This document shows positions 1,901 to 48,693 of a stretch of 64,000 bases of DNA, one piece after another. The translations under genes and the position numbers were made by a program. The notes beneath the pieces are model-generated. The model was not told the origin of the DNA. It made no database searches and was given only the letters and a program-made list of their open reading frames with translations. This DNA comes from Patescibacteria group bacterium (GTDB lineage: Bacteria > Patescibacteriota > Patescibacteriia > SG8-24 > DYFX01), in the NCBI GenBank assembly GCA_030583805.1, contig CP129476.1:1030657-1094656 (forward strand), in the 5' to 3' direction. The stretch's first letter is position 1. Each line of letters starts with the position of its first letter.

Positions 1901-4822
1901 ATGAACACGCTCCAGCGCATCAAAGCCAAACTGTTCCTCCTCTTCTCAGGGAAGAGGGGGCTTTGGCGTTCGATGGCGCTGGGCGTTGTCGTGTTGGCGG
2001 CCATGGCGGTTCCGGCCGCCGTGCGCGCTGGAGAATGCGGCCTCGGCAGCCCGCATTCCTGCATCGCCATGATTTTCGTCTGGATCTTCCAGATCCTGAC
2101 GAGCCTCATGGGCTTCATCTTGATCATGGAAGTCGACGCCTTGATCCGCGTGGCCCAGTATTTCAACTTCGTGTCGCCTGGACCGACGGCGGTTCAGGTC
2201 GGCTGGGTCGTGACGCGGGACTTGGCGAACATGTTCTTCATCGTGTTCCTCATGATCATCGCCTTCAGCACGGTCATCGGGTACTCGAAGTACCATTATG
2301 AACAGACGCTGAAGAAGCTCCTGATCATGGCCGTCGTCATCAACTTCTCGAAGACGATCGTCGGCTTGATGATCGACGTGAGCCAGGTCGTGATGCTTTC
2401 TTTCGTGAACGGTTTCCGTGCCGCCGCGGCCGGCAACTTCATGAATGCGTTCCAGATCAACAAGCTGCTTCGGCTCGCCGACGGCGTGTCGGACTACAAC
2501 TTCGGCTTGGTGCTGGCCATGATGCTCGCCTTCATCCTGGCCGCGATCGCGGTGTGCGTCGTTCTCGTCATGCTGGTCATGCTCGTCTTCCGCGTGATCA
2601 TGCTTTGGGTGCTGATCATCCTTTCGCCGATCGCGTTCCTCACGGCCGCCTTCCCGCTCAGCGGCAATTATTACGCGCAGTGGTGGGCTGAACTCAAAAA
2701 ATACCTGGTCGGCGGCCCGGTGATCGCGTTTTTCTTGTGGCTGGCGCTGGCGACGGCTCAAGCGACGGGAGGAAATCTCTCGTCCGCACAGGAAGGCTGG
2801 GGTGTACAATCCACGGCTTCATCGCAAGAAGTGCAAGGACAGGCGGCGCGCCTCGAGCTCAACAGGCCGCAGATTCCGAGCGAGGCTGGGCGTACCGACA
2901 CTATTCTCAGCATGGTGATCGTCACCTGCATCATGTTCGCCGGATTGAAATTCGCGTCCGATCCGGCGATCGGTGGCATGGCGGCCGGTTTCGCCGGCAA
3001 GGTGAGGAGCAAGGCGGTATCCGCGCTTCGTGCGGGTACAGTTGGCGTTGCCGGCTATGGTTTGAAGCGCGCAGCTGAACCGCTTGCGACGGGCGTTGGC
3101 AGGGGTTTGGCGCGCGTTCCGCTCGTCGGCGGCGCCGGCCGCTACTTGGCGCTGACAGGCGAGAAGTGGAAGAAGGACCGCATCGCCAGCCGCGAAAAGA
3201 CCTTCGGCGGTCCGGAAGATTTCGCGCGTCTCAGCCCGGGCGCCTTCGTGCGGCAGATGAGTTCGCTGTCCCAGAAGCGCAAGCTTGATGATGTCGATAA
3301 GAAACGCCTGGACGGCATGCTTTCGACCGGTTTGAAAAATCCGGCTTTGGCGCAGAGTTTGACGAAGAGCGGACAAGGCCACGACACGCTCGACCAGCTT
3401 ATCCAGCAATCCAGCGGCAAGGGGTTGCAGGACATTGTCGGCACGGCGATTTCCGATAAGAACGCCAGTTCTTGGATGAAGGGCGACCCCGATCTCTTGA
3501 AGCGCACCTACGACAAGCTCCGATCGGAGTGGAAGGACAAAGATGGCAATGTGCTCGACCCGAACATGGCCAAGACGGTCGGAGAGTTCGAGCAAAAGTT
3601 CGCCGTGCCGCTGCACAAGAACGGATTGTTCAGCTCGATCCCTTCGGTCGCCGACGAAAAGCTGAAGCAGCTCGTGCCGAAGATGTCGTCCGACGATATC
3701 GGCGGTATTGCCAAGGATGACATGGGCTTCTTCATGAAGCACATGACCTCCGGTCAGCTCAAGAAGGTCATGTCCGACGGCAAGCCGGATCAGCTCGCCG
3801 GCGTCGGAGAAGAATTGAATAAGATGCCGCAGAAAGACGCGCTCGCCTTCATGCGCGAGAAGGGTTTCAGCGCGACGGATATCCCCACGAGCTGGTATTC
3901 CAGCAAGGATGAGAACGGCAAGGTGCAGTTCAGTAAAAATATCGCCGACTTCGTCTTGGCGTCGACAGCAGGAAACGCGGAGGCGCGCGCTAAGGTTATG
4001 GCGGATCCTGGACGCGCTGACGCATTGCGCAGCGCGGCGACGCGCGGCTTGAGTGGCGCTACGGCATTGAAGGACGACAACAAGATCGCTGCCGCTGCCG
4101 TTCAGGCGATGTCGGTTGGCGCCTTGAAAGTCGATGATCTGAAAAACGATTCGAAGCTGCTCGGCGTGCTTGGCAGCAGCATGGATACGGCGGCGCTTGC
4201 TCGCGGTATCAACAAGGATGATGCCGGACAATTGTCTGTCGCGCGCGAGGCGTTCAAGGCCGTTATGGCGCATGATCCGACCCGCGTACGCAACCTGAGT
4301 AAGAACGATCTCTACAACAAGCTTTTGCCGTCGAAGCAGGAAATCGACGCGGCGGTGGCCGCGCAGGCGGCCGGCGTGGCGCAGCAGAAAGCCGGAGAGC
4401 GTGTCGTTCAGAACAAGGGATTGGCTGACGAAGCATCAGAGCTCGTTGCCAATATGGATGCGCAACTGAAGACTCTTGCAAGAGAGATTGGAGAGGATAA
4501 ACTCGCGAGCCGGACCACGACAGCTAAGGAAGAACAGGAGGAAAGGTTGACGAAGGCATTGGAAAATCTCAGCCAAGCGACGCAGAAGCGCGGAGATGCT
4601 GAGAACGAGCTGGCGCGTCTTACGCAGCGTTTGACGGACGCACGCTCGAGTGGTGCGGATGCGGACAGTATCTCCGGCCTTGAAAGCGCGATCAAGGGCT
4701 TGGAGAGCAATATGCAAGAGTTGGAAGCTGGCTTGGCAAAGCAAGTCGCTCTTTCGAAAGGTATAAAAATCGATGAAGGCGGCGGCCGCAAGAACCGTCG
4801 TGGGGGAGGGGCGAACGTATGA
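1901..4822 (+). CDS. VirB6/TrbL-like polytopic membrane protein with long charged/coiled-coil C-terminal extension
   Basis: N-terminal ~330 aa contain 6-7 hydrophobic helices (e.g. IAMIFVWIFQILTSLMGFILI, MFFIVFLMIIAFSTVIGY). The remaining ~640 aa are K/D/A/E-rich and helical. Operon context with PrgI-like and VirB4 genes. Stop overlaps the next start (ATGA). Confidence 0.5.
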   Translation: MNTLQRIKAKLFLLFSGKRGLWRSMALGVVVLAAMAVPAAVRAGECGLGSPHSCIAMIFVWIFQILTSLMGFILIMEVDALIRVAQYFNFVSPGPTAVQVGWVVTRDLANMFFIVFLMIIAFSTVIGYSKYHYEQTLKKLLIMAVVINFSKTIVGLMIDVSQVVMLSFVNGFRAAAAGNFMNAFQINKLLRLADGVSDYNFGLVLAMMLAFILAAIAVCVVLVMLVMLVFRVIMLWVLIILSPIAFLTAAFPLSGNYYAQWWAELKKYLVGGPVIAFFLWLALATAQATGGNLSSAQEGWGVQSTASSQEVQGQAARLELNRPQIPSEAGRTDTILSMVIVTCIMFAGLKFASDPAIGGMAAGFAGKVRSKAVSALRAGTVGVAGYGLKRAAEPLATGVGRGLARVPLVGGAGRYLALTGEKWKKDRIASREKTFGGPEDFARLSPGAFVRQMSSLSQKRKLDDVDKKRLDGMLSTGLKNPALAQSLTKSGQGHDTLDQLIQQSSGKGLQDIVGTAISDKNASSWMKGDPDLLKRTYDKLRSEWKDKDGNVLDPNMAKTVGEFEQKFAVPLHKNGLFSSIPSVADEKLKQLVPKMSSDDIGGIAKDDMGFFMKHMTSGQLKKVMSDGKPDQLAGVGEELNKMPQKDALAFMREKGFSATDIPTSWYSSKDENGKVQFSKNIADFVLASTAGNAEARAKVMADPGRADALRSAATRGLSGATALKDDNKIAAAAVQAMSVGALKVDDLKNDSKLLGVLGSSMDTAALARGINKDDAGQLSVAREAFKAVMAHDPTRVRNLSKNDLYNKLLPSKQEIDAAVAAQAAGVAQQKAGERVVQNKGLADEASELVANMDAQLKTLAREIGEDKLASRTTTAKEEQEERLTKALENLSQATQKRGDAENELARLTQRLTDARSSGADADSISGLESAIKGLESNMQELEAGLAKQVALSKGIKIDEGGGRKNRRGGGANV

Positions 4823-6567
4823 TCGCGTCTGACGTCCTGCAGCGGAAGATCGATGCGCTGCCGGAGCCGGTGCTCGAGTACCTCTATTCGGAGCGCGCGG
4901 GCGCCCTGAATTTGGAAATCATCGAGCAGCACCAGCTGAACGAAAAACAGGAAGAAGCGTACTTCCAAATCCTGCGCGAACTGTTCGTCAAAGATCTTCC
5001 GCTTGAGCGCTTGCTGCTTGAGCTGAAATCCAAGCTCGGCCTCGATGACGCCAAGGCGAAAGCGCTGGCCATCGATATCGCGGGCAAGCGCCTCTTGCCG
5101 CTCGACAAGTGGCTCGCCGACGTTACGGCGTTTTTGCGCGCGCTCGGCGCCGACCCGAAAACGTTCCCGGATTTCCGCGTAACGATCGCGCGCCGCACGG
5201 TCGACGAGGCCGTGGAGGAGATTACGACGTCCGTCGCGTCCGAAGCGACCGGTCATCCGCAGCAGCGGTTGCAGAACGTCGTCGAGTCGGTGCTCGCCGG
5301 CGTGCGTACCGAAGCGCAGGCGCTCGACGTGCTGACCAGGCCGGAAAAAATCGGCGGTGTCGGTCTCGAGCCGAAAGCGGCCGAGCGCGTGCTTGAAGAG
5401 ATTCGCGAGGAATCGCATGCCGTCATTTTGGATCAGCGCGCGCCGCGGCACGAGAAAAAAGAGGAAGCCGCCCCGGCGAAAGCCAAGAACGTCGGGCTCG
5501 AATTGACGCCGGAGGACGCGCTCGAAGTCGCGCAGTTCAAGAAGGCGACGCCGGCCGTCGATATCGACGCGCTCGTGCAAGAAATTTATCTTGCGTCCGG
5601 CCTTGCTACGCAAGATGAGGCCATGGCGAAGCGCGTGAAGACGATTATCGGCAACCGCTTGCGCGACGTGCGCGACCAAATGGAAACGCTCGAGATCATG
5701 ATCCAGCCGAAAGAGCTGGGCGGTTTGAGCATGGGTCAGGACGCGGCACGCGCGCTCTTGAACCTCATTCAATCGCGTTTGCAAAAGACGGACACGGCGG
5801 CGCAAGCGAAGGTCCAGACGGAAAAGAAGAAGTGGGTGGAAACGGAGCGTTTGCAAAAAGCGCAGTCGGAAACCCAGGCGAACGTTGAGCAGAAAACGGA
5901 GCTTGAACAGCTGTACCAAAGCATCGTTTCAAAATCGAAAAAGGTCGCTCCGACGCCGGAGAAACCCGCCGCCGTAGCGACGATGTTGGACGGAAAGTCT
6001 GCCGCGCCGGCGAATCTTCCGATTTCTTCGGCCAGTCCCGTGCCTCCGGACTTCCGCGCGCCCGCCGCTCCGCCCGAAGAGCCCGCTGTTTCCGCCCCAG
6101 CCGCTCCGCCCGCCCGCCCGCCGCTTCCGCCCCCGGTCACGATGGTGAAGCCGATGCCCGCCCCCGCGCAGCCGCCGGCACCGGTTGCCGCGCCGGCATC
6201 ATTCGCGCAGCGGCCGAAACTCGACGACGTGAAAGCGTCGCCGAAATTGACCGGCCCGGTCGAAGAGCTTCGGGCGATCACCATCCTCGACTTCCGCCGC
6301 TTGTCCAGGGATCCGAAGGAAGCCTGCGTGAAGATCAAGGACAAGATCGATTTGCTCGGAGAGCAGTCGTACACCCGTCGGTCAGAGGGGATCGCTGCTT
6401 GGACCGCTTCCGAGGTGACCAGGACCTACCTCGAATTGATGCGGGAAAGCTTGAATGGCACGCCCCTTACGGAGGCGATCGCCGCTCGCGAAGCGGCCAA
6501 AAAGCCGGTACTTACGGCCGACGAGTTTCGGGCCGTGGCCGATTTGAGCCGGCAACTACGATATTAA
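4819..6567 (+). CDS. Hypothetical Pro/Ala-rich protein in T4SS-like operon
   Basis: 582 aa ORF translationally coupled to the upstream gene. Central proline-rich low-complexity segment (PPEEPAVSAPAAPPARPPLPPP). No recognisable catalytic motif. Confidence 0.45.
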   Translation: MIASDVLQRKIDALPEPVLEYLYSERAGALNLEIIEQHQLNEKQEEAYFQILRELFVKDLPLERLLLELKSKLGLDDAKAKALAIDIAGKRLLPLDKWLADVTAFLRALGADPKTFPDFRVTIARRTVDEAVEEITTSVASEATGHPQQRLQNVVESVLAGVRTEAQALDVLTRPEKIGGVGLEPKAAERVLEEIREESHAVILDQRAPRHEKKEEAAPAKAKNVGLELTPEDALEVAQFKKATPAVDIDALVQEIYLASGLATQDEAMAKRVKTIIGNRLRDVRDQMETLEIMIQPKELGGLSMGQDAARALLNLIQSRLQKTDTAAQAKVQTEKKKWVETERLQKAQSETQANVEQKTELEQLYQSIVSKSKKVAPTPEKPAAVATMLDGKSAAPANLPISSASPVPPDFRAPAAPPEEPAVSAPAAPPARPPLPPPVTMVKPMPAPAQPPAPVAAPASFAQRPKLDDVKASPKLTGPVEELRAITILDFRRLSRDPKEACVKIKDKIDLLGEQSYTRRSEGIAAWTASEVTRTYLELMRESLNGTPLTEAIAAREAAKKPVLTADEFRAVADLSRQLRY

Positions 6568-10314: not shown

Positions 10315-10968
10315 ATGTTCGGGCGCGTTTTTGATTTTCTCTTCCCGTTGGAGTGCATCGCCTGCGGCGCTTCAGGAGCGCATGCCTGCCGCGCGTGCCT
10401 CGCGAGCGTACCACTCGCGCCGCAAAGTTGGCGTTTGCCGGAGCTGCGCGCTTCGGCCGCTTTCGCCTACGGTCATCCGTTCGTGCGGCGGCTGCTGCAT
10501 GACGTGAAGTTCGAGCGCTGGACGTGCGCGCGTCCGGCTTTAGAGGCGCTGGCCGGACGATGGGCCGTGAAAGTCGGAAAGGGTTTTTGTCCTCCGGAAA
10601 CGGTCGTCGTGTCCGTGCCGTTGCACGCGAGAAAGCTTCGCGAGCGCGGGTTCAATCAAGCGGCGTTCTTGGCGGACGGCATCGCCGCCACGCTCGGTTT
10701 GCGTCGCGGCGACGCGTGGCTCTCCCGCGTCGTTCGCACGCGGCCGCAAACCGAAGCCGAGAACCGCGCGCGCAACGTGGTGGGCGCGTTTCATGCGCAG
10801 TCGTCCGTTTCGATGCGCGGACGGCCGGTTTTGCTCGTCGATGACGTCTGGACGACCGGCGCTACGATGCGGGAGTGCGCCAAGGCGTTGCGGCAAGCGG
10901 GCGCGGGGCAGGTGTTCGGTTTCGCCCTGGCCTGGGGGAGGGGAGAAAAAGAAAAGCTCCGCAGGTAG
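10315..10968 (+). CDS. comFC: ComF family protein (phosphoribosyltransferase-like competence protein ComFC)
   Basis: N-terminal Cys4 zinc finger (CIACG...CRAC), then PRTase-type fold with LLVDDVWTTGATM motif. Confidence 0.8.
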   Translation: MFGRVFDFLFPLECIACGASGAHACRACLASVPLAPQSWRLPELRASAAFAYGHPFVRRLLHDVKFERWTCARPALEALAGRWAVKVGKGFCPPETVVVSVPLHARKLRERGFNQAAFLADGIAATLGLRRGDAWLSRVVRTRPQTEAENRARNVVGAFHAQSSVSMRGRPVLLVDDVWTTGATMRECAKALRQAGAGQVFGFALAWGRGEKEKLRR

Positions 10969-43946: not shown

Positions 43947-45002
43947 ATGATTCCTCTCGCGCCGGGGCCGCACAAAAAACTGATCGCCGCCGGGCTTGCC
44001 GCCGCCGCTTTGATCGGCAGCGGGATTTTGGTCGCGCGGTATTTTGCCGCCAGCGCGACGGACGCGCTCCTCGAGGTTTCGGAGCCGGAACCCGAGCCGA
44101 CCATCGACTTCGCCGACTACGACCGCCGCCTGCGCCGCTTGGCGCACGTCCCCGAAACCGCCAAGAATACCGACGGCCTGCTTTGGCCGGTCAAAGCCGC
44201 CTATCCCGAAGTCGGCGCGATCCTTCCCTGGAAGCGCATCGTCGCGTATTACGGCAACTTCTATTCCAGGGGCATGGGCGTGCTCGGCGAATATTCCGAG
44301 GACGTGATGCTTGAGAAATTCAGAAAAGAGATCGCCGCGTGGGAAGCCGCCGATCCGGAGACGCCGGTCATGCCGGCCGTCGACTACATCGCCATCGTGG
44401 CGCAGGCCGGAGCGGGGAGAGACGGAAAATACCGCGCGCGCATGCCGCACACGGAAATCGACAAAGCGCTCGCCGTCGCCGAAAAAGTGAACGGCATCGT
44501 CATTCTCGAAGTGCAAGCCGGACTCTCGGACGTCATGACGGAAATCAAGACGCTCGAGCCGTATCTCAAGCTGCCGAACGTGCATTTGGCGATCGATCCC
44601 GAGTTCGCGATGCTCCGCCGCAAGGTGCGCCCCGGCCTCATGGTCGGCACGGTCGACGCTTGGGAAGTGAACGCGGCTGCAGAATATCTCGCCGAACTCG
44701 TACGCGCGAACGATTTGCCGCCCAAGGTGCTCGTCGTCCACCGCTACACGCGCCCGATGGTCACGAACGCGGCCAAGATCGTCCCGCTTCCCGAAGTGCA
44801 GATCGTCATGGACATGGACGGCTGGGGCGGCATGGGCAACAAGATCAGCACCTACAACGCCTACATCCGCCCCGAACCCGTGCAATTCACCGGCTTCAAG
44901 CTGTTCTACAAGAACGACGTGAAGTGGAAAGGGTCGCGCATGCTGACGCCGAAAGAAATTTTGGATCTCACGCCTTCGCCGTCGTTCATCCAGTATCAAT
45001 AA
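43947..45002 (+). CDS. Hypothetical membrane-anchored protein (possible TIM-barrel glycoside-hydrolase-like fold)
   Basis: N-terminal TM; alternating beta/alpha pattern; no firm family assignment. Confidence 0.35.
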   Translation: MIPLAPGPHKKLIAAGLAAAALIGSGILVARYFAASATDALLEVSEPEPEPTIDFADYDRRLRRLAHVPETAKNTDGLLWPVKAAYPEVGAILPWKRIVAYYGNFYSRGMGVLGEYSEDVMLEKFRKEIAAWEAADPETPVMPAVDYIAIVAQAGAGRDGKYRARMPHTEIDKALAVAEKVNGIVILEVQAGLSDVMTEIKTLEPYLKLPNVHLAIDPEFAMLRRKVRPGLMVGTVDAWEVNAAAEYLAELVRANDLPPKVLVVHRYTRPMVTNAAKIVPLPEVQIVMDMDGWGGMGNKISTYNAYIRPEPVQFTGFKLFYKNDVKWKGSRMLTPKEILDLTPSPSFIQYQ

Positions 45003-45597: not shown

Positions 45598-45601
45598 ACG
45601 T

Positions 45602-46276
45602 ATGGCTTATCTGAAATGGTTGGAGAATGGCTACTTAAAGAAGCAATCCGGGAAATACTACCTGCTGCTCATTGCGTTCTCTATAGCGGGATTTATTTTT
45701 TCTCGAAGCTCACTTTCCCAGAGGTTTCCATTCACGTTCGCATTGGTCGGTATATTTGTCGTTGTAGTTTATATCCTTGCGTACTTCAAATATTTCAAAA
45801 AGATTCTGCATTTTGAAAAAGGGATAGATGGAGAATGGGCTGTTGCCAAAGTCTTGTGTGACTTGCCAGAGTCGCACTTTGGCTTCCATGATGTACGCGT
45901 GCCAGGCATGTGGGGGAATATTGATTTTGTCGTCGTTACACCTACGCATGTTTTTGCACTCGAGGTAAAAAACACGCTGTGGTATTCAACAAAGTCTCAT
46001 GTCAAACAGGCAAAACAAGGAGCCATGTTCTTGAATAGGTGGCTGCGGCAACAGATTGGTCACGACATCTTCGTAAATCCAGTCGTCGTGTTTTCTCATA
46101 GTAAAAATAAGTGGCGGCATACCGGCATTCATGATCGTGCCGGGGTGGTAAGACTGGACGGCCTCAACGCCTTTGTTTTGGATAAATCCGGACGGTCTTA
46201 TGACACAGGTCTGATGATCCCGGTCGTGCAAGCGCTTAAAAGGTTTACGCCTGTTCATAAGGTTGTTTGCGACTAA
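45602..46276 (+). CDS. NERD (nuclease-related domain) protein with N-terminal TM
   Basis: EWAVAKVL...HDVRVPG..GNIDFVVVTPTHVFALEVKN pattern of the NERD domain. Confidence 0.65.
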   Translation: MAYLKWLENGYLKKQSGKYYLLLIAFSIAGFIFSRSSLSQRFPFTFALVGIFVVVVYILAYFKYFKKILHFEKGIDGEWAVAKVLCDLPESHFGFHDVRVPGMWGNIDFVVVTPTHVFALEVKNTLWYSTKSHVKQAKQGAMFLNRWLRQQIGHDIFVNPVVVFSHSKNKWRHTGIHDRAGVVRLDGLNAFVLDKSGRSYDTGLMIPVVQALKRFTPVHKVVCD

Positions 46277-46316
46277 AAGGAAGTGAGCAGGCGCAAGCCC
46301 GTACTTAAATCTAGCC

Positions 46317-46354
46317 TTTGCCCCGTTCGCCCTTCTTCCTGTAGGATCGGGTAC
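46317..46354. repeat. 38-bp direct repeat copy 1 (duplicate of dnaE promoter region)
   Basis: TTTGCCCCGTTCGCCCTTCTTCCTGTAGGATCGGGTAC; 36/38 identical to 48656-48693. Confidence 0.75.
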
Positions 46355-46465
46355 GTCGTTAGTGAACCTTAATAAATCCCTTTGGTGCCAGGTACGGATA
46401 ACCGTGAATTTTAGAAAAAACATGCTACACTAAATCTAGTTGTGAAGTGTTAATTCGCACACACT

Positions 46466-46861
46466 ATGAATCCAGTGGTCAAAAAGTTTGGAATCGCGAT
46501 TGGTGCCATTGTAGTTCTGTTTATCGTTCTCAGTAGATTTTCAATCGTGGAATCTAGGTATGTATGCCTGGGGGATTTAACAAGTGATACCGGAGTTCGG
46601 TCTACTAATGTCTATTTAAAACTCCAGAAGTATAGGTGGTGGGTTCATCTATGGAATGATTCCTACGGTGCATTGAATTGGGAAATTCCAAATACCTGGA
46701 CTGAGTACTACGAGCGTATTGAAGACGTTGGAGATCATCTTCAATTTTTTGAAATGTATCCCAGTAGGAAATCCAAGGGAAATTTCTCGCTACTCAGCGG
46801 AGCGATCAAAATTGTAACTCCTTTGGGAAATTTTCAAGGAGATTGCAGGATTGCTGAGTAA
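46466..46861 (+). CDS. Hypothetical protein with N-terminal TM (island cargo)
   Basis: 131 aa, low-GC. Confidence 0.4.
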   Translation: MNPVVKKFGIAIGAIVVLFIVLSRFSIVESRYVCLGDLTSDTGVRSTNVYLKLQKYRWWVHLWNDSYGALNWEIPNTWTEYYERIEDVGDHLQFFEMYPSRKSKGNFSLLSGAIKIVTPLGNFQGDCRIAE

Positions 46862-46961
46862 CATACTAACTTAAAAATTTGAAAGCCACTCCCAGATAGG
46901 GATCTTTCCCCGTTAGTGCCAGGCACTGGCAAAAAATGGCACTATGGGGATGTTCTAGTAT

Positions 46962-48137
46962 ATGCGTGGAAAAGCAGCGATAAATCCAAAAATTTTGGTC
47001 TGGGCGAGGGAGGATTTTGGTATTTCTATTGAAGCAGTGGCCAAAGGGATTGGACAAAAAAATAAAAAAATCATTGAGCTTTGGGAGAAGGGTGAAGATG
47101 CCCCATCATTTGCTCAACTGGAATCACTTGCTAGATTTTATAAAAGACCGACAGCCTTTTTCTATTTACCCGAACCCCCAACCCCGACAAAATTACCAAA
47201 CGACTTTCGGACAGCGCTATCAAAAAATGTTGAAATTTTACATAAAGAAACCAGACTTGCGGTTCGTAGAGCTGAGTATGTCCAGCAAGTTTTGAAAGAG
47301 ATCGAGCAAGAAGGTCTCGAAGAATTTAAGCTAAAGACGACACTGGCCGATGATTCAAACCTCCTCGTTAGGGAAGTTGAAATCCTGGGCAATTTAGATA
47401 GGGAACACTTTCGAAAAAGCACACAGGATTCAAGAACGGCTCTTGCATTCTGGAGAAACTTTATTGAAGAAAAAATTGGTGTCATTACGCTATCTCTCCC
47501 TTTCCCTCTTAAAGAGGCGAGAGGTTTTTCATTGTTTGATGCGACGCATCCTGTAGTTGTTATTAATTCTCATGACACTGAAAACGGAAAAATATTTTCG
47601 TTATTCCATGAACTAGGACATCTTGCATTAAGAGGCTCGGGTATCTGCCTGCCTTCCGAGGTGGGAACCAGCAACAGTTTTCCTTCAAAAATTGAGCAGT
47701 TTTGTAACTCCTTCGCAGGAAGTTTTTTGGTACCAAATAACTCGTTAAATAACTATAAGCAAAAAAAATCCTTTGACGTTGAGAATTTTGATTCAACTAT
47801 TGATTCTACAGCCAAGTATTTCAGAGTAAGCAAGTTTGTAATTTTGGCTAGATTACTGCAGCTACATGAAATTAACAAGAATATTTTTTCTGAAAAAACA
47901 CAGCAATATAGAGAAGAATATGAAAAAATTAAAAATCTTGTAGAAAAGAAGAAGTTTGCGGTTAAGCAAGAGTATCTTTGTGTAAGTGCGAACGGACCCC
48001 GCTTCACCACAAAAGTATTAGCCAGCTACAACGAGAAGAAGATCACTTTGAGTGATGTTTCACGTTTGTTAAACGTGGGTGTTCGGCATATTAAAAATGT
48101 CGAAAGCTATATTTATAAACGAGCGCGGAATACGTAA
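46962..48137 (+). CDS. XRE-family HTH domain fused to ImmA/IrrE-type zinc metallopeptidase (COG2856-like)
   Basis: N-terminal HTH (ILVWAREDFGISIEAVAKGIG); HEXXH motif FSLFHELGHLAL. Confidence 0.7.
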   Translation: MRGKAAINPKILVWAREDFGISIEAVAKGIGQKNKKIIELWEKGEDAPSFAQLESLARFYKRPTAFFYLPEPPTPTKLPNDFRTALSKNVEILHKETRLAVRRAEYVQQVLKEIEQEGLEEFKLKTTLADDSNLLVREVEILGNLDREHFRKSTQDSRTALAFWRNFIEEKIGVITLSLPFPLKEARGFSLFDATHPVVVINSHDTENGKIFSLFHELGHLALRGSGICLPSEVGTSNSFPSKIEQFCNSFAGSFLVPNNSLNNYKQKKSFDVENFDSTIDSTAKYFRVSKFVILARLLQLHEINKNIFSEKTQQYREEYEKIKNLVEKKKFAVKQEYLCVSANGPRFTTKVLASYNEKKITLSDVSRLLNVGVRHIKNVESYIYKRARNT

Positions 48138-48139
48138 GT

Positions 48140-48652
48140 ATGATTGAGCTCAAAACGGCTCAACAACCAGCAGCTCGTTATTGCTTAGATGCTTGTGCAC
48201 TTATTGATTTTGATAAGGTAAGGTTCCCACACGATCACTTTGAGGTTGTCTGGAAAGAGCTCAATTCTTTGGTAGAAAGTGGCGCTATGATTTCTCCGCG
48301 TGAGGTACGGAGAGAAGTTGTTACGGAAGTAAAAGAAAAGGACTGGGTTAACAAGTGGGCTAGTACCAGGAAACAAATGTTTATTAATCCGGATGAAGAA
48401 CAGGAAAAGATTGTTACTCTCGTTCTCACCAAATTTCCTAAAATGTTAAATAAGTACCAAAGCGGGCCCTTTGCTGATCCATGGGTTGTGGCTTTGGCCA
48501 AAGCAAGGAATCTGACCGTTATTACGTCAGAACTACCTGGAGGGAAAGGTGCGTGGAAAATCCCAGATATTTGTCGTGAGTTAGGTGTTGCATGCTTTGA
48601 CATTACTGATTTGATTCGGGCAGAAAACTGGAAATTTAATGCGAAAATTTAG
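48140..48652 (+). CDS. DUF4411-like PIN-type putative nuclease, partner of the HTH-ImmA gene
   Basis: 170 aa; acidic residues in a PIN-like arrangement (YCLDACALID...D); 3-nt spacing to the upstream gene. Confidence 0.5.
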   Translation: MIELKTAQQPAARYCLDACALIDFDKVRFPHDHFEVVWKELNSLVESGAMISPREVRREVVTEVKEKDWVNKWASTRKQMFINPDEEQEKIVTLVLTKFPKMLNKYQSGPFADPWVVALAKARNLTVITSELPGGKGAWKIPDICRELGVACFDITDLIRAENWKFNAKI

Positions 48653-48655
48653 TGT

Positions 48656-48693
48656 TTTGCCCCGTTCGCCCTTCCTCCTGTAAGATCGGGTAC
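48656..48693. repeat. 38-bp direct repeat copy 2 / dnaE promoter region (TGTAAGAT extended -10)
   Basis: TTTGCCCCGTTCGCCCTTCCTCCTGTAAGATCGGGTAC, 10 nt upstream of the dnaE ATG. Confidence 0.75.

Follow-up and report, generated by a model that had tools for sequence, protein, structure and literature searches.

The VapBC52 module of Mycobacterium tuberculosis (VapB52/VapC52, Rv2515c/Rv2514c; PDB 9VZY and 9VZZ) was shown in 2019 to work as a toxin-antitoxin (TA) pair (Tandon et al., J Biol Chem 294:9048, as cited in PMC13273310). A recent report (Nucleic Acids Res 2026, PMC13273310) documented toxicity, neutralisation, a 1:2 complex, self-cleavage and tRNA cleavage, in all cases for the M. tuberculosis proteins only. 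Self-cleavage of VapB52 induced by single-stranded DNA (ssDNA) was observed solely in vitro, and the FR motif was termed a 'probable' cleavage site (PMC13273310). Previously, Matelska et al. (2017, PMC5499597) found that, in organisms other than Actinobacteria, DUF4411.1 is preceded by a gene for fused DUF955 and HTH domains. In their work, which is a prediction and proposes transcriptional de-repression, DUF4411.1 together with HTH-DUF955 (COG2856) constitutes a 'three-component' TA system whose toxin has four conserved negatively charged residues.

Other systems share the peptidase half of this arrangement. RosmerTA systems (RmrT/RmrA) act against phages (Millman et al. 2022; Ernits et al. 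2023, PMC10440598). [quoted passage not shown] In the CapP/CapH system of CBASS and the IrrE/DdrO system of Deinococcus, an IrrE-type M78 peptidase cleaves a separate HTH repressor and transcription is switched on.

In this study, we analysed a gene pair within a 64,000-nt stretch of a Patescibacteria genome (hereafter, the window). The pair has exactly the architecture described by Matelska et al. (2017). Judging from its sequence, it is a distant and divergent member of the VapBC52-type TA family and not a new kind of system. The original prediction, made from the DNA letters, had considered it not to be a characterised system; this view must be abandoned, as the architecture was described in 2017 (PMC5499597) and VapBC52 was dissected structurally and biochemically in 2026 (PMC13273310). 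Altogether, we consider it probable that the locus is a type II TA module, composed of a DUF4411.1 PIN toxin and a fused HTH-M78 peptidase antitoxin, which the Patescibacteria genome has acquired horizontally.

The gene pair and its relation to VapBC52

The two genes are real, and both open reading frames (ORFs) are intact and of full length (Table 1). Only 2 nt separate the TAA stop of the 391-aa ORF from the ATG of the 170-aa ORF. The original prediction had placed an XRE HTH and a HEXXH ImmA/IrrE peptidase in the first protein and a PIN-like ORF 2 nt further on; its coordinates proved exact, and Pfam agrees with the assignment. All four domain matches that count exceed the curated Pfam cut-offs and are far beyond chance. 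Identical entries for both proteins already exist in NCBI, where they are annotated as 'XRE family transcriptional regulator' and 'DUF4411 family protein' and assigned to a Patescibacteria group bacterium MAG. These entries can be renamed as VapB52/VapC52-like antitoxin and toxin.

Table 1. Coordinates of the TA pair and of the features around it, numbered within the window.
Feature	Coordinates	Strand	Basis
NERD-domain gene (224 aa), with two hydrophobic segments predicted at the N-terminal end	45602..46276	+	Pfam NERD E = 6.5e-14
DR1, left 38-nt direct repeat, host-type dnaE leader sequence	46317..46354	+	window repeat search
Co-inserted 131-aa gene, small signal-anchored protein, inside the repeat-flanked segment	46466..46861	+	alignment
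Candidate operator or 5'-leader element, 13-nt inverted repeat CCCGTTAGTGCCA / TGGCACTATGGGG	46909..46949	+	sequence scan
Antitoxin gene, VapB52-like, 391 aa	46962..48137	+	Pfam, 9VZY chain A, family profile, AF2
Toxin gene, VapC52-like DUF4411 PIN-domain protein, 170 aa	48140..48652	+	Pfam, 9VZY chain D, AF2, Foldseek
DR2, right 38-nt direct repeat	48656..48693	+	window repeat search

The antitoxin is laid out as an XRE HTH domain (residues ~9-68; Pfam HTH_3, residues 14-66, E = 4.4e-8), a flexible linker with F82-R83, an M78/IrrE-type zinc peptidase (Pfam Peptidase_M78, residues 170-298, E = 7.9e-18) and a four-helix C-terminal domain (residues 336-390). Its HEXXH motif reads HELGH (216-220). 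The peptidase residues are H216, E217, H220 and E245, accompanied by C229 at the switch position and by the invariant C248. Against the VapB52 chain (9vzy_A), phmmer gave E = 7.4e-23 and BLASTP 26% identity with E = 2e-29. A family profile built from 30 homologues, with the window protein as the first row, matched the same chain with E = 3.3e-92, from profile position 9 to 385 on chain residues 2-386; the putatively toxin-occluding C-terminal domain falls inside this alignment. Residues H216, H220, C229 and E245 correspond to H216, H220, C229 and E245 of VapB52 (VapB52 residues as given in PMC13273310), C229 sits 13 residues past H216 in both proteins, and F82-R83 aligns with the FR motif of VapB52 (F75-R76).

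These correspondences extend to the predicted structure. The antitoxin was modelled by AF2 with a pLDDT of 90.3. Confidence is low only in the F-R linker (residues 81-90) and in the loop after C229 (233-240), and the C-terminal helices of the model run over 336-344, 346-357, 363-370 and 374-390. Foldseek retrieved IrrE, CapP, PrpR and C.Csp231I as neighbours of the model, and VapB52 has the same structural neighbours (PMC13273310). Like VapB52, the antitoxin has its HTH at the N-terminus, the M78 peptidase in the middle and a four-helix domain at the C-terminus, along with the HEXXH, C229, E245 and C248 positions and the F-R motif in the linker. Its length is similar, at 391 aa versus 415 aa for VapB52 (393 aa in the crystallised chain). 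Unlike VapB52, it has no disordered N-terminal extension of ~23 residues.

The 170-aa protein matches DUF4411 over the full profile (residues 14-166, profile 1-159/159, E = 3.6e-31), with a sub-threshold Pfam match to PIN (E = 0.002). Against the VapC52 chain (9vzy_D), phmmer gave E = 2.3e-16 and BLASTP 29% identity with E = 5e-23. As candidate catalytic residues it has the acidic D17, E59, D113 and E131, and also E55 and D143. The first four are invariant in an alignment that includes VapC52, and are kept in 60-66 of 67 family members. All the top PDB matches that Foldseek returned for the AF2 model (pLDDT 86.2) are VapC/FitB PIN toxins, with a probability of 1.00 and TM-scores up to 0.69. 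Hence, the fold check proposed along with the original prediction yielded a predicted VapC-type PIN fold with conserved acidic residues. Because the PDB fold library ends in April 2026, 9VZY was outside the Foldseek comparison; the link to VapBC52 was established by sequence and profile searches against the 2026 set of PDB sequences.

In agreement with this link, the antitoxin gene comes first and the DUF4411 toxin gene follows immediately, as in VapBC52, and the toxin shares with VapC52 the four acidic residues and, by prediction, the PIN fold. Unlike VapBC52, which belongs to an actinobacterium, the pair resides in a Patescibacteria (CPR) MAG. With no more than 26-29% identity to VapB52 and VapC52, it may differ from them in target specificity and trigger.

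We also considered that the pair might be an inactive remnant, or that the PIN protein might be non-catalytic and have another job. The fifth PIN position, which varies among members (D143 in the window toxin, Asn in 41/67 relatives), could be read in this way. However, the ORFs are of full length, every catalytic and regulatory residue is intact, and the sequence is identical across three independent assemblies or samples. Moreover, decayed loci elsewhere (L065 and L076) look truncated by comparison. Loss of function or of catalysis is thus an exceedingly improbable account of the locus.

A second group of relatives is pointed out by defence-system profiles. Like RosmerTA, the locus has an RmrA-type antitoxin combining an HTH and an ImmA-type zinc peptidase, and 16 RmrA profiles of PADLOC match this protein (best E = 2.8e-24), as does the capP profile (E = 8.9e-14); among the PHROG families it matches phrog_2439 (E = 1.4e-53). 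Unlike in RosmerTA, the toxin falls outside the RmrT families of PADLOC, with zero PADLOC matches at E <= 0.01, RmrT profiles included. Therefore, with a DUF4411 toxin lacking an RmrT match, PADLOC would not call this locus a Rosmer system.

Co-occurrence and conservation across the family

The family was inspected at 121 loci, comprising the first 80 genomic relatives (L001-L080) and 41 loci on viral contigs. The antitoxin gene is followed immediately by a DUF4411 gene on the same strand in 72/80 genomic loci and 40/41 viral-contig loci, or 112 of the 121 in total, with bacteria, archaea and viral contigs all represented. Co-occurrence statistics had also been suggested as a check of the original prediction, and the pairing is borne out by these counts. 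The toxin gene usually overlaps the antitoxin gene or starts within ~30 nt of its stop. We conclude that the VapBC52-type family is scattered widely over many bacterial and archaeal phyla and also occurs on viral or prophage contigs. In this sense, the VapBC52-type self-cleaving peptidase-antitoxin system is no mycobacterial oddity, as the two-gene cassette is conserved over many bacterial and archaeal phyla and viral contigs. The co-occurrence in 112/121 loci, the archaeal and viral-contig members, and the residue-level comparison with a solved structure are what our analysis adds to the report of Matelska et al. (2017).

Conservation of the antitoxin was assessed in the 80 genomic relatives. 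H216, E217, H220 and C248 are present in 80/80 and E245 in 79/80. In the linker motif, R83 is found in 75/80 and F82 in 69/80, and FR occurs in ~90%. The switch position varies, with Cys in 26 of the 80 members, Asp in 21, Thr in 15 and Ser in 9. Since only 26/80 have Cys here, a mechanism based on a Cys switch is not family-wide, although the window antitoxin has C229. Some of the members with Asp, Thr or Ser in place of the switch Cys may use another activation mechanism or respond to another trigger. The variability of this residue, a Cys in about one third of the members, is a concrete lead on how these antitoxins are triggered. Two decayed loci of the family, L065 and L076, are visibly truncated.

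Proposed mode of action

We propose a mode of action on the basis of the characterised homologue from M. tuberculosis and of the residues that the window proteins have kept. Two copies of the 170-aa PIN toxin would pair as a dimer and be held by the 391-aa antitoxin, which would grip the outside of the dimer with its N-terminal HTH and block the active site with its four-helix C-terminal domain. Cys229 would serve as a fourth ligand of the zinc and so keep the peptidase (H216/H220/E245) inactive, a so-called 'cysteine switch', until ssDNA activates the enzyme. The activated peptidase would then cut off the antitoxin's own N-terminal domain near F82-R83, and the complex would fall apart. Once freed, the PIN toxin would cleave tRNAs in their anticodon or variable loops, with growth arrest or abortive infection as the expected outcome. 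By analogy only, we infer toxicity of this toxin and its neutralisation by this antitoxin, the ssDNA trigger, the tRNA targets and a benefit in phage defence. The original prediction of a TA or abortive-infection pair, in which a peptidase-HTH protein senses a trigger and licenses a PIN nuclease, is backed in this respect by the homology to VapBC52 (PMC13273310).

The same prediction had referred to a 'peptidase-repressor' of the ImmA/ImmR style that controls transcription. This part finds less support, as the homologue acts mainly by direct protein-protein neutralisation and self-cleavage. In such a scheme, the main task of the 391-aa protein would be to switch transcription, as in ImmA/ImmR or IrrE/DdrO, self-cleavage removing the HTH repressor and de-repressing the PIN gene and possibly dnaE. 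Several data could accommodate it. The HTH_3 domain resembles DNA-binding controllers such as C.Csp231I, and the inverted repeat listed in Table 1 lies 13-53 nt before the antitoxin ATG, with arms complementary at 11/13 positions, 15 nt between them and a nested TGCCAG/CTGGCA; moreover, this is the model put forward by Matelska et al. (2017, PMC5499597). Against it, in the homologous crystal complex the toxin is contacted directly by both terminal domains of VapB52, the N-terminal HTH and the C-terminal one, and the N-terminal domain is needed for VapBC52 complex formation (PMC13273310). The C-terminal domain is also conserved in the family. We therefore regard a mainly transcriptional role as very improbable. 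The two roles are not mutually exclusive, and the position of the inverted repeat suggests that the pair could be autoregulated through it.

Direct neutralisation followed by self-cleavage, the reading that we favour, also sets the locus apart from other M78 peptidase systems. The antitoxin has the IrrE-type M78 peptidase fold of CapP and IrrE, and a cysteine switch that responds to ssDNA would, by analogy, be common to the CapP/IrrE systems and the VapB52-type antitoxin. In contrast to CapP/CapH and IrrE/DdrO, the VapB52 type combines substrate and protease in one polypeptide, and its output is the release of a bound toxin. Unlike those systems, the window locus has neither a GAF domain nor a CBASS operon. 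A search of the island at 45598-48655 (ORFs, Pfam and PADLOC) gave no stand-alone XRE gene, integrase or CBASS gene. A two-protein switch of the ImmA/ImmR or CapP/CapH kind was rejected because the HTH is fused to the peptidase and a separate repressor gene is absent from the island.

The insert upstream of dnaE

The pair lies in a ~3 kb low-GC island just upstream of dnaE, where GC3 is 0.35-0.50 versus 0.71-0.84 in the host genes. A 38-nt sequence of the dnaE leader is repeated on both sides of the segment with the pair. The right copy, DR2, begins 4 nt past the toxin stop and ends 10 nt short of the dnaE start codon. This sequence occurs at two places only in the window, with 0 occurrences expected by chance. 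Hence, the TA pair was freshly acquired by horizontal transfer, on a low-GC insert that has 38 nt of duplicated dnaE leader at its two ends. The CPR host, the ~3 kb low-GC island and the duplicated leader are features specific to this locus, and they document a VapBC52-type cassette newly transferred into a genome-reduced Patescibacteria lineage.

The site before insertion may be represented by the nearest relative, L126, the sole contig among the host relatives that keeps the upstream 351-aa gene (43947-45002) and dnaE. In L126, a sequence with ~70% similarity to the 38-nt repeat lies upstream of dnaE. An 'empty site' in the host relatives is suggested by this one contig. Exact matches to the 38-nt repeat were absent from the metagenome and viral collections. 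With two copies in the window and no match in these collections, the sequence is neither a dispersed repeat nor an att site already known. The island contains no tRNA, and no structured RNA matched Rfam at E <= 0.1 between 45000 and 49200. In addition, predicted promoters and terminators were no more numerous in the island than in shuffled sequence. A more far-reaching idea is that, in the tiny genome of a host-dependent Patescibacteria, the TA cassette was captured directly behind a duplicated dnaE leader or promoter, so that a module sensing ssDNA became wired in its transcription to the replicative polymerase gene, as a CPR checkpoint for replication stress or phage, with the 38-nt site as a new integration hotspot; we hold this to be quite unlikely.

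The recent transfer also bears on what the pair does for its host. A working TA pair could serve for addiction, that is, to stabilise the new insert as a selfish element that resists loss, and not for phage defence or a stress response. The low-GC segment with its 38-nt flanking duplication fits this role, and so does a family that is scattered across phyla and present on viral or prophage contigs. Moreover, intact VapBC52 gave no protection against phage D29; protection was obtained only when VapC52 was overexpressed alone, and cells co-expressing VapB52 and VapC52 were unprotected (PMC13273310). On the other side, the conserved zinc site and F-R motif suggest a toxin release that responds to a signal and not mere differential stability, and related systems with RmrA-type antitoxins (RosmerTA) do give phage defence (PMC10440598). 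Thus, we consider a role confined to addiction unlikely.

Two further genes lie in the low-GC island. The NERD-domain gene is found in its left part, outside the repeat-flanked segment, and has a GC3 of 0.50. It was rejected as a third TA component, as no homologue adjoins the pair in L001-L080. The same applies to the co-inserted 131-aa gene, which is absent beside the pair in L001-L080 and whose single inspectable relative, L204, has no TA neighbours. Searches of Pfam, PADLOC, NCBIfam and PHROG with the 131-aa protein gave no match. Its family is conserved but unannotated, keeps two cysteines, and has 301 representatives at E <= 1e-3 in the representatives library.

The gene pair and its homology to VapB52-VapC52

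The two open reading frames of the original prediction, which had proposed a toxin-antitoxin (TA) or abortive-infection pair, are present exactly where it had placed them, with 2 nt between the stop codon of the first and the start codon of the second. In the 391-aa antitoxin, Pfam HTH_3 covers residues 14-66 (E = 4.4e-8) and Peptidase_M78 residues 170-298 (E = 7.9e-18), and the HEXXH motif reads HELGH (216-220). The 170-aa toxin matches the full DUF4411 profile (residues 14-166, E = 3.6e-31), and its match to PIN is sub-threshold. Exact NCBI copies from a Patescibacteria group bacterium MAG are annotated as 'XRE family transcriptional regulator' and 'DUF4411 family protein', and two further assemblies from other samples carry the sequence at 100% identity.

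Features of the gene pair and the surrounding island (window numbering)
Feature	Position	Strand	Size	GC3	Remarks
Host genes				0.71-0.84	
Low-GC island	45598-48655		~3 kb		between MGMT-like DNA-binding gene (ends 45597) and dnaE (starts 48703)
NERD-domain gene	45602-46276	+		0.50	Pfam E = 6.5e-14; two apparent N-terminal hydrophobic segments
Direct repeat	46317-46354 and 48656-48693		38 nt		two mismatches; flanks 2.3 kb segment with 131-aa ORF and TA pair
131-aa ORF	46466-46861	+	131 aa	0.39	N-terminal hydrophobic anchor; conserved cysteines C34 and C127
Inverted repeat	46909-46921 and 46937-46949		13 nt		just upstream of antitoxin start codon
Antitoxin ORF	46962-48137	+	391 aa	0.35	HTH_3 and Peptidase_M78
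Toxin ORF	48140-48652	+	170 aa	0.37	DUF4411

By sequence comparison, both proteins are homologous to the two chains of PDB entry 9VZY, the VapB52-VapC52 complex (Rv2515c/Rv2514c) of M. tuberculosis (PMC13273310, Nucleic Acids Res, June 2026). The antitoxin matched chain A ('HTH cro/C1-type domain-containing protein') with E = 7.4e-23 and the toxin chain D ('DUF4411 family protein') with E = 2.3e-16; pairwise BLASTP against these chains gave 26% identity (E = 2e-29) and 29% identity (E = 5e-23), respectively. The C-terminal domain of the antitoxin was beyond the reach of pairwise BLASTP alone and was covered by a profile built from 30 full-length relatives, which aligned over positions 9-385 with VapB52 residues 2-386 (E = 3.3e-92). 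Therefore, the homology spans all three domains, including the C-terminal one.

The claim that this pairing is uncharacterised is out of date, as VapB52-VapC52 is already an established TA pair with a solved complex; PMC13273310 credits Tandon et al. 2019 (J Biol Chem 294:9048) with showing that Rv2514c-Rv2515c works as a TA pair. The general idea of a peptidase that responds to a trigger and thereby sets the nuclease free to act agrees with the published VapBC52 model, and the functional interpretation was largely right. The antitoxin also matched the PADLOC profiles of CapP and of RmrA, the RosmerTA antitoxin (best E = 2.8e-24). The DUF4411 protein had no PADLOC match, so the locus falls outside the formal Rosmer definition. 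According to the NetFlax study, PIN-like toxins are among the partners of this ImmA-type antitoxin node. The window pair adds a new, divergent member to a family that had already been predicted and is by now experimentally characterised.

Residues, folds and a proposed mechanism

In VapB52, H216, H220 and E245 coordinate the zinc, and C229 serves as an additional, fourth ligand, a 'cysteine switch' that blocks the active site; self-cleavage probably takes place at F75-R76, a conserved motif in the linker that joins the N-terminal domain to the middle one (PMC13273310). The counterpart positions in the window antitoxin are H216, E217, H220, C229, E245 and C248, and the FR motif aligns with F82-R83. 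The AlphaFold2 model of the antitoxin is confident (pLDDT 90.3, pTM 0.88) apart from two stretches, the F-R linker (81-90) and the loop that follows C229 (233-240), and ends in four helices (336-344, 346-357, 363-370 and 374-390). Foldseek retrieved IrrE/PprI, CapP and PrpR from the PDB, and C.Csp231I for the HTH, from a library that runs to April 2026 and does not include 9VZY; PMC13273310 lists the same structural neighbours for VapB52.

The nuclease fold expected of the toxin was borne out by its model (pLDDT 86.2), which adopts a VapC-type PIN fold and whose top PDB matches were all VapC or FitB toxins (Foldseek probability 1.00). Moreover, D17, E55, E59, D113, E131 and D143 are invariant in a toxin alignment that includes VapC52, and D17 corresponds to the catalytic D6 of VapC52.

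We infer every functional step at this locus by homology. Most likely, the N-terminal and C-terminal domains of the antitoxin would clamp the toxin dimer; in the published complex, toxin binding requires the N-terminal HTH domain, and the four-helix C-terminal domain of VapB52 occludes the VapC52 active site (PMC13273310). Single-stranded DNA would then free the cysteine switch, the peptidase would remove its own N-terminal domain by a cut near F82-R83, and the released PIN toxin would cleave tRNAs in their anticodon or variable loops, leading to growth arrest. Self-cleavage of VapB52 induced by single-stranded DNA was observed only in vitro, and VapC52 protected against phage D29 when overexpressed alone but not when co-expressed with VapB52 (PMC13273310). 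We conjecture that the 13-nt inverted repeat could be an operator.

Distribution and conservation of the family

A genomic scan with one genome per species yielded 80 full-length antitoxin relatives, spread very widely over the bacterial phyla and present in archaea, including Methanothrix, Thermoplasmata, Micrarchaeota, Nitrosopumilaceae and Methanobrevibacter. The co-occurrence suggested as a check was confirmed: in 72 of the 80, the antitoxin gene is followed immediately by a same-strand DUF4411 ORF, whose domain usually begins within a range from 22 nt ahead of the antitoxin stop codon to 34 nt past it. The partner is likewise directly downstream in 40 of 41 relatives on IMG/VR viral or prophage contigs, where the single exception is cut off by the end of its contig. 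The eight genomic exceptions comprise two contig ends, two visibly truncated antitoxin genes and others with no recognisable partner. In one of the partnerless loci (L004, ~4500-6300), overlapping long ORFs of 579-664 aa on both strands directly follow the antitoxin gene, and the start region of one resembles a helix-turn-helix or transposase; these ORFs may stem from an insertion that took the place of the toxin gene or moved it away. Both proteins matched PHROG families (phrog_2439, E = 1.4e-53; phrog_11126, E = 3.4e-19). A large group of viral-contig loci (L101-L113 and L121) is near-identical, which points to a single prophage lineage that is widespread and bears the pair.

The zinc site is essentially invariant in the 80 genomic loci, C248, three residues past the ligand E245, is present in all of them, and the F-R motif is kept in ~90%. 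The switch column (window residue 229) holds Cys in 26 loci, Asp in 21, Thr in 15, Ser in 9 and Tyr in 4. With Cys confined to 26 of the 80, the mechanism of activation that has been published may not hold family-wide. Of 67 toxins, 60-66 retain D17, E59, D113 and E131, and position 143 is mostly Asn.

The island upstream of dnaE

The pair lies in an island of ~40% GC between flanks of ~61%, and the GC3 contrast between the island and host genes is a clear signal of transfer. The 38-nt direct repeat occurs only twice within the window. On the nearest relative contig (L126), the dnaE N-terminus is 87% identical to that in the window, none of the four island genes is present, and a sequence ~70% similar to the repeat lies directly upstream of dnaE (~10735-10775). 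This indicates that the repeat is the host dnaE leader, duplicated around the insert. Read by eye, it contains TTGCCC, 18 nt, then TAGGAT or TAAGAT, just under the promoter-scan threshold, and could be a weak sigma-70-type promoter.

No integrase or transposase was found in the island, which seems composite in origin: the NERD gene, outside the repeat-flanked segment and with a GC3 of 0.50, may have been acquired separately or at an earlier time. Gene content upstream of dnaE differs in the host-relative contigs L125 and L126, suggesting a variable hotspot. The CPR (Patescibacteria) host, the fresh horizontal acquisition beside dnaE with its duplicated leader, and a switch residue that varies across the family offer leads of modest interest; they do not make the locus a new kind of system.

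In the 80 genomic loci, the pair stands without either the 131-aa ORF or the NERD gene. The 131-aa ORF is part of a genuine, conserved family of small proteins (~130 aa) with a signal anchor, which has 301 cluster representatives at E <= 1e-3 and is not annotated in Pfam, NCBIfam, PADLOC or PHROG. In one public assembly (L081), the gene caller missed the NERD gene and called opposite-strand ORFs in its place.
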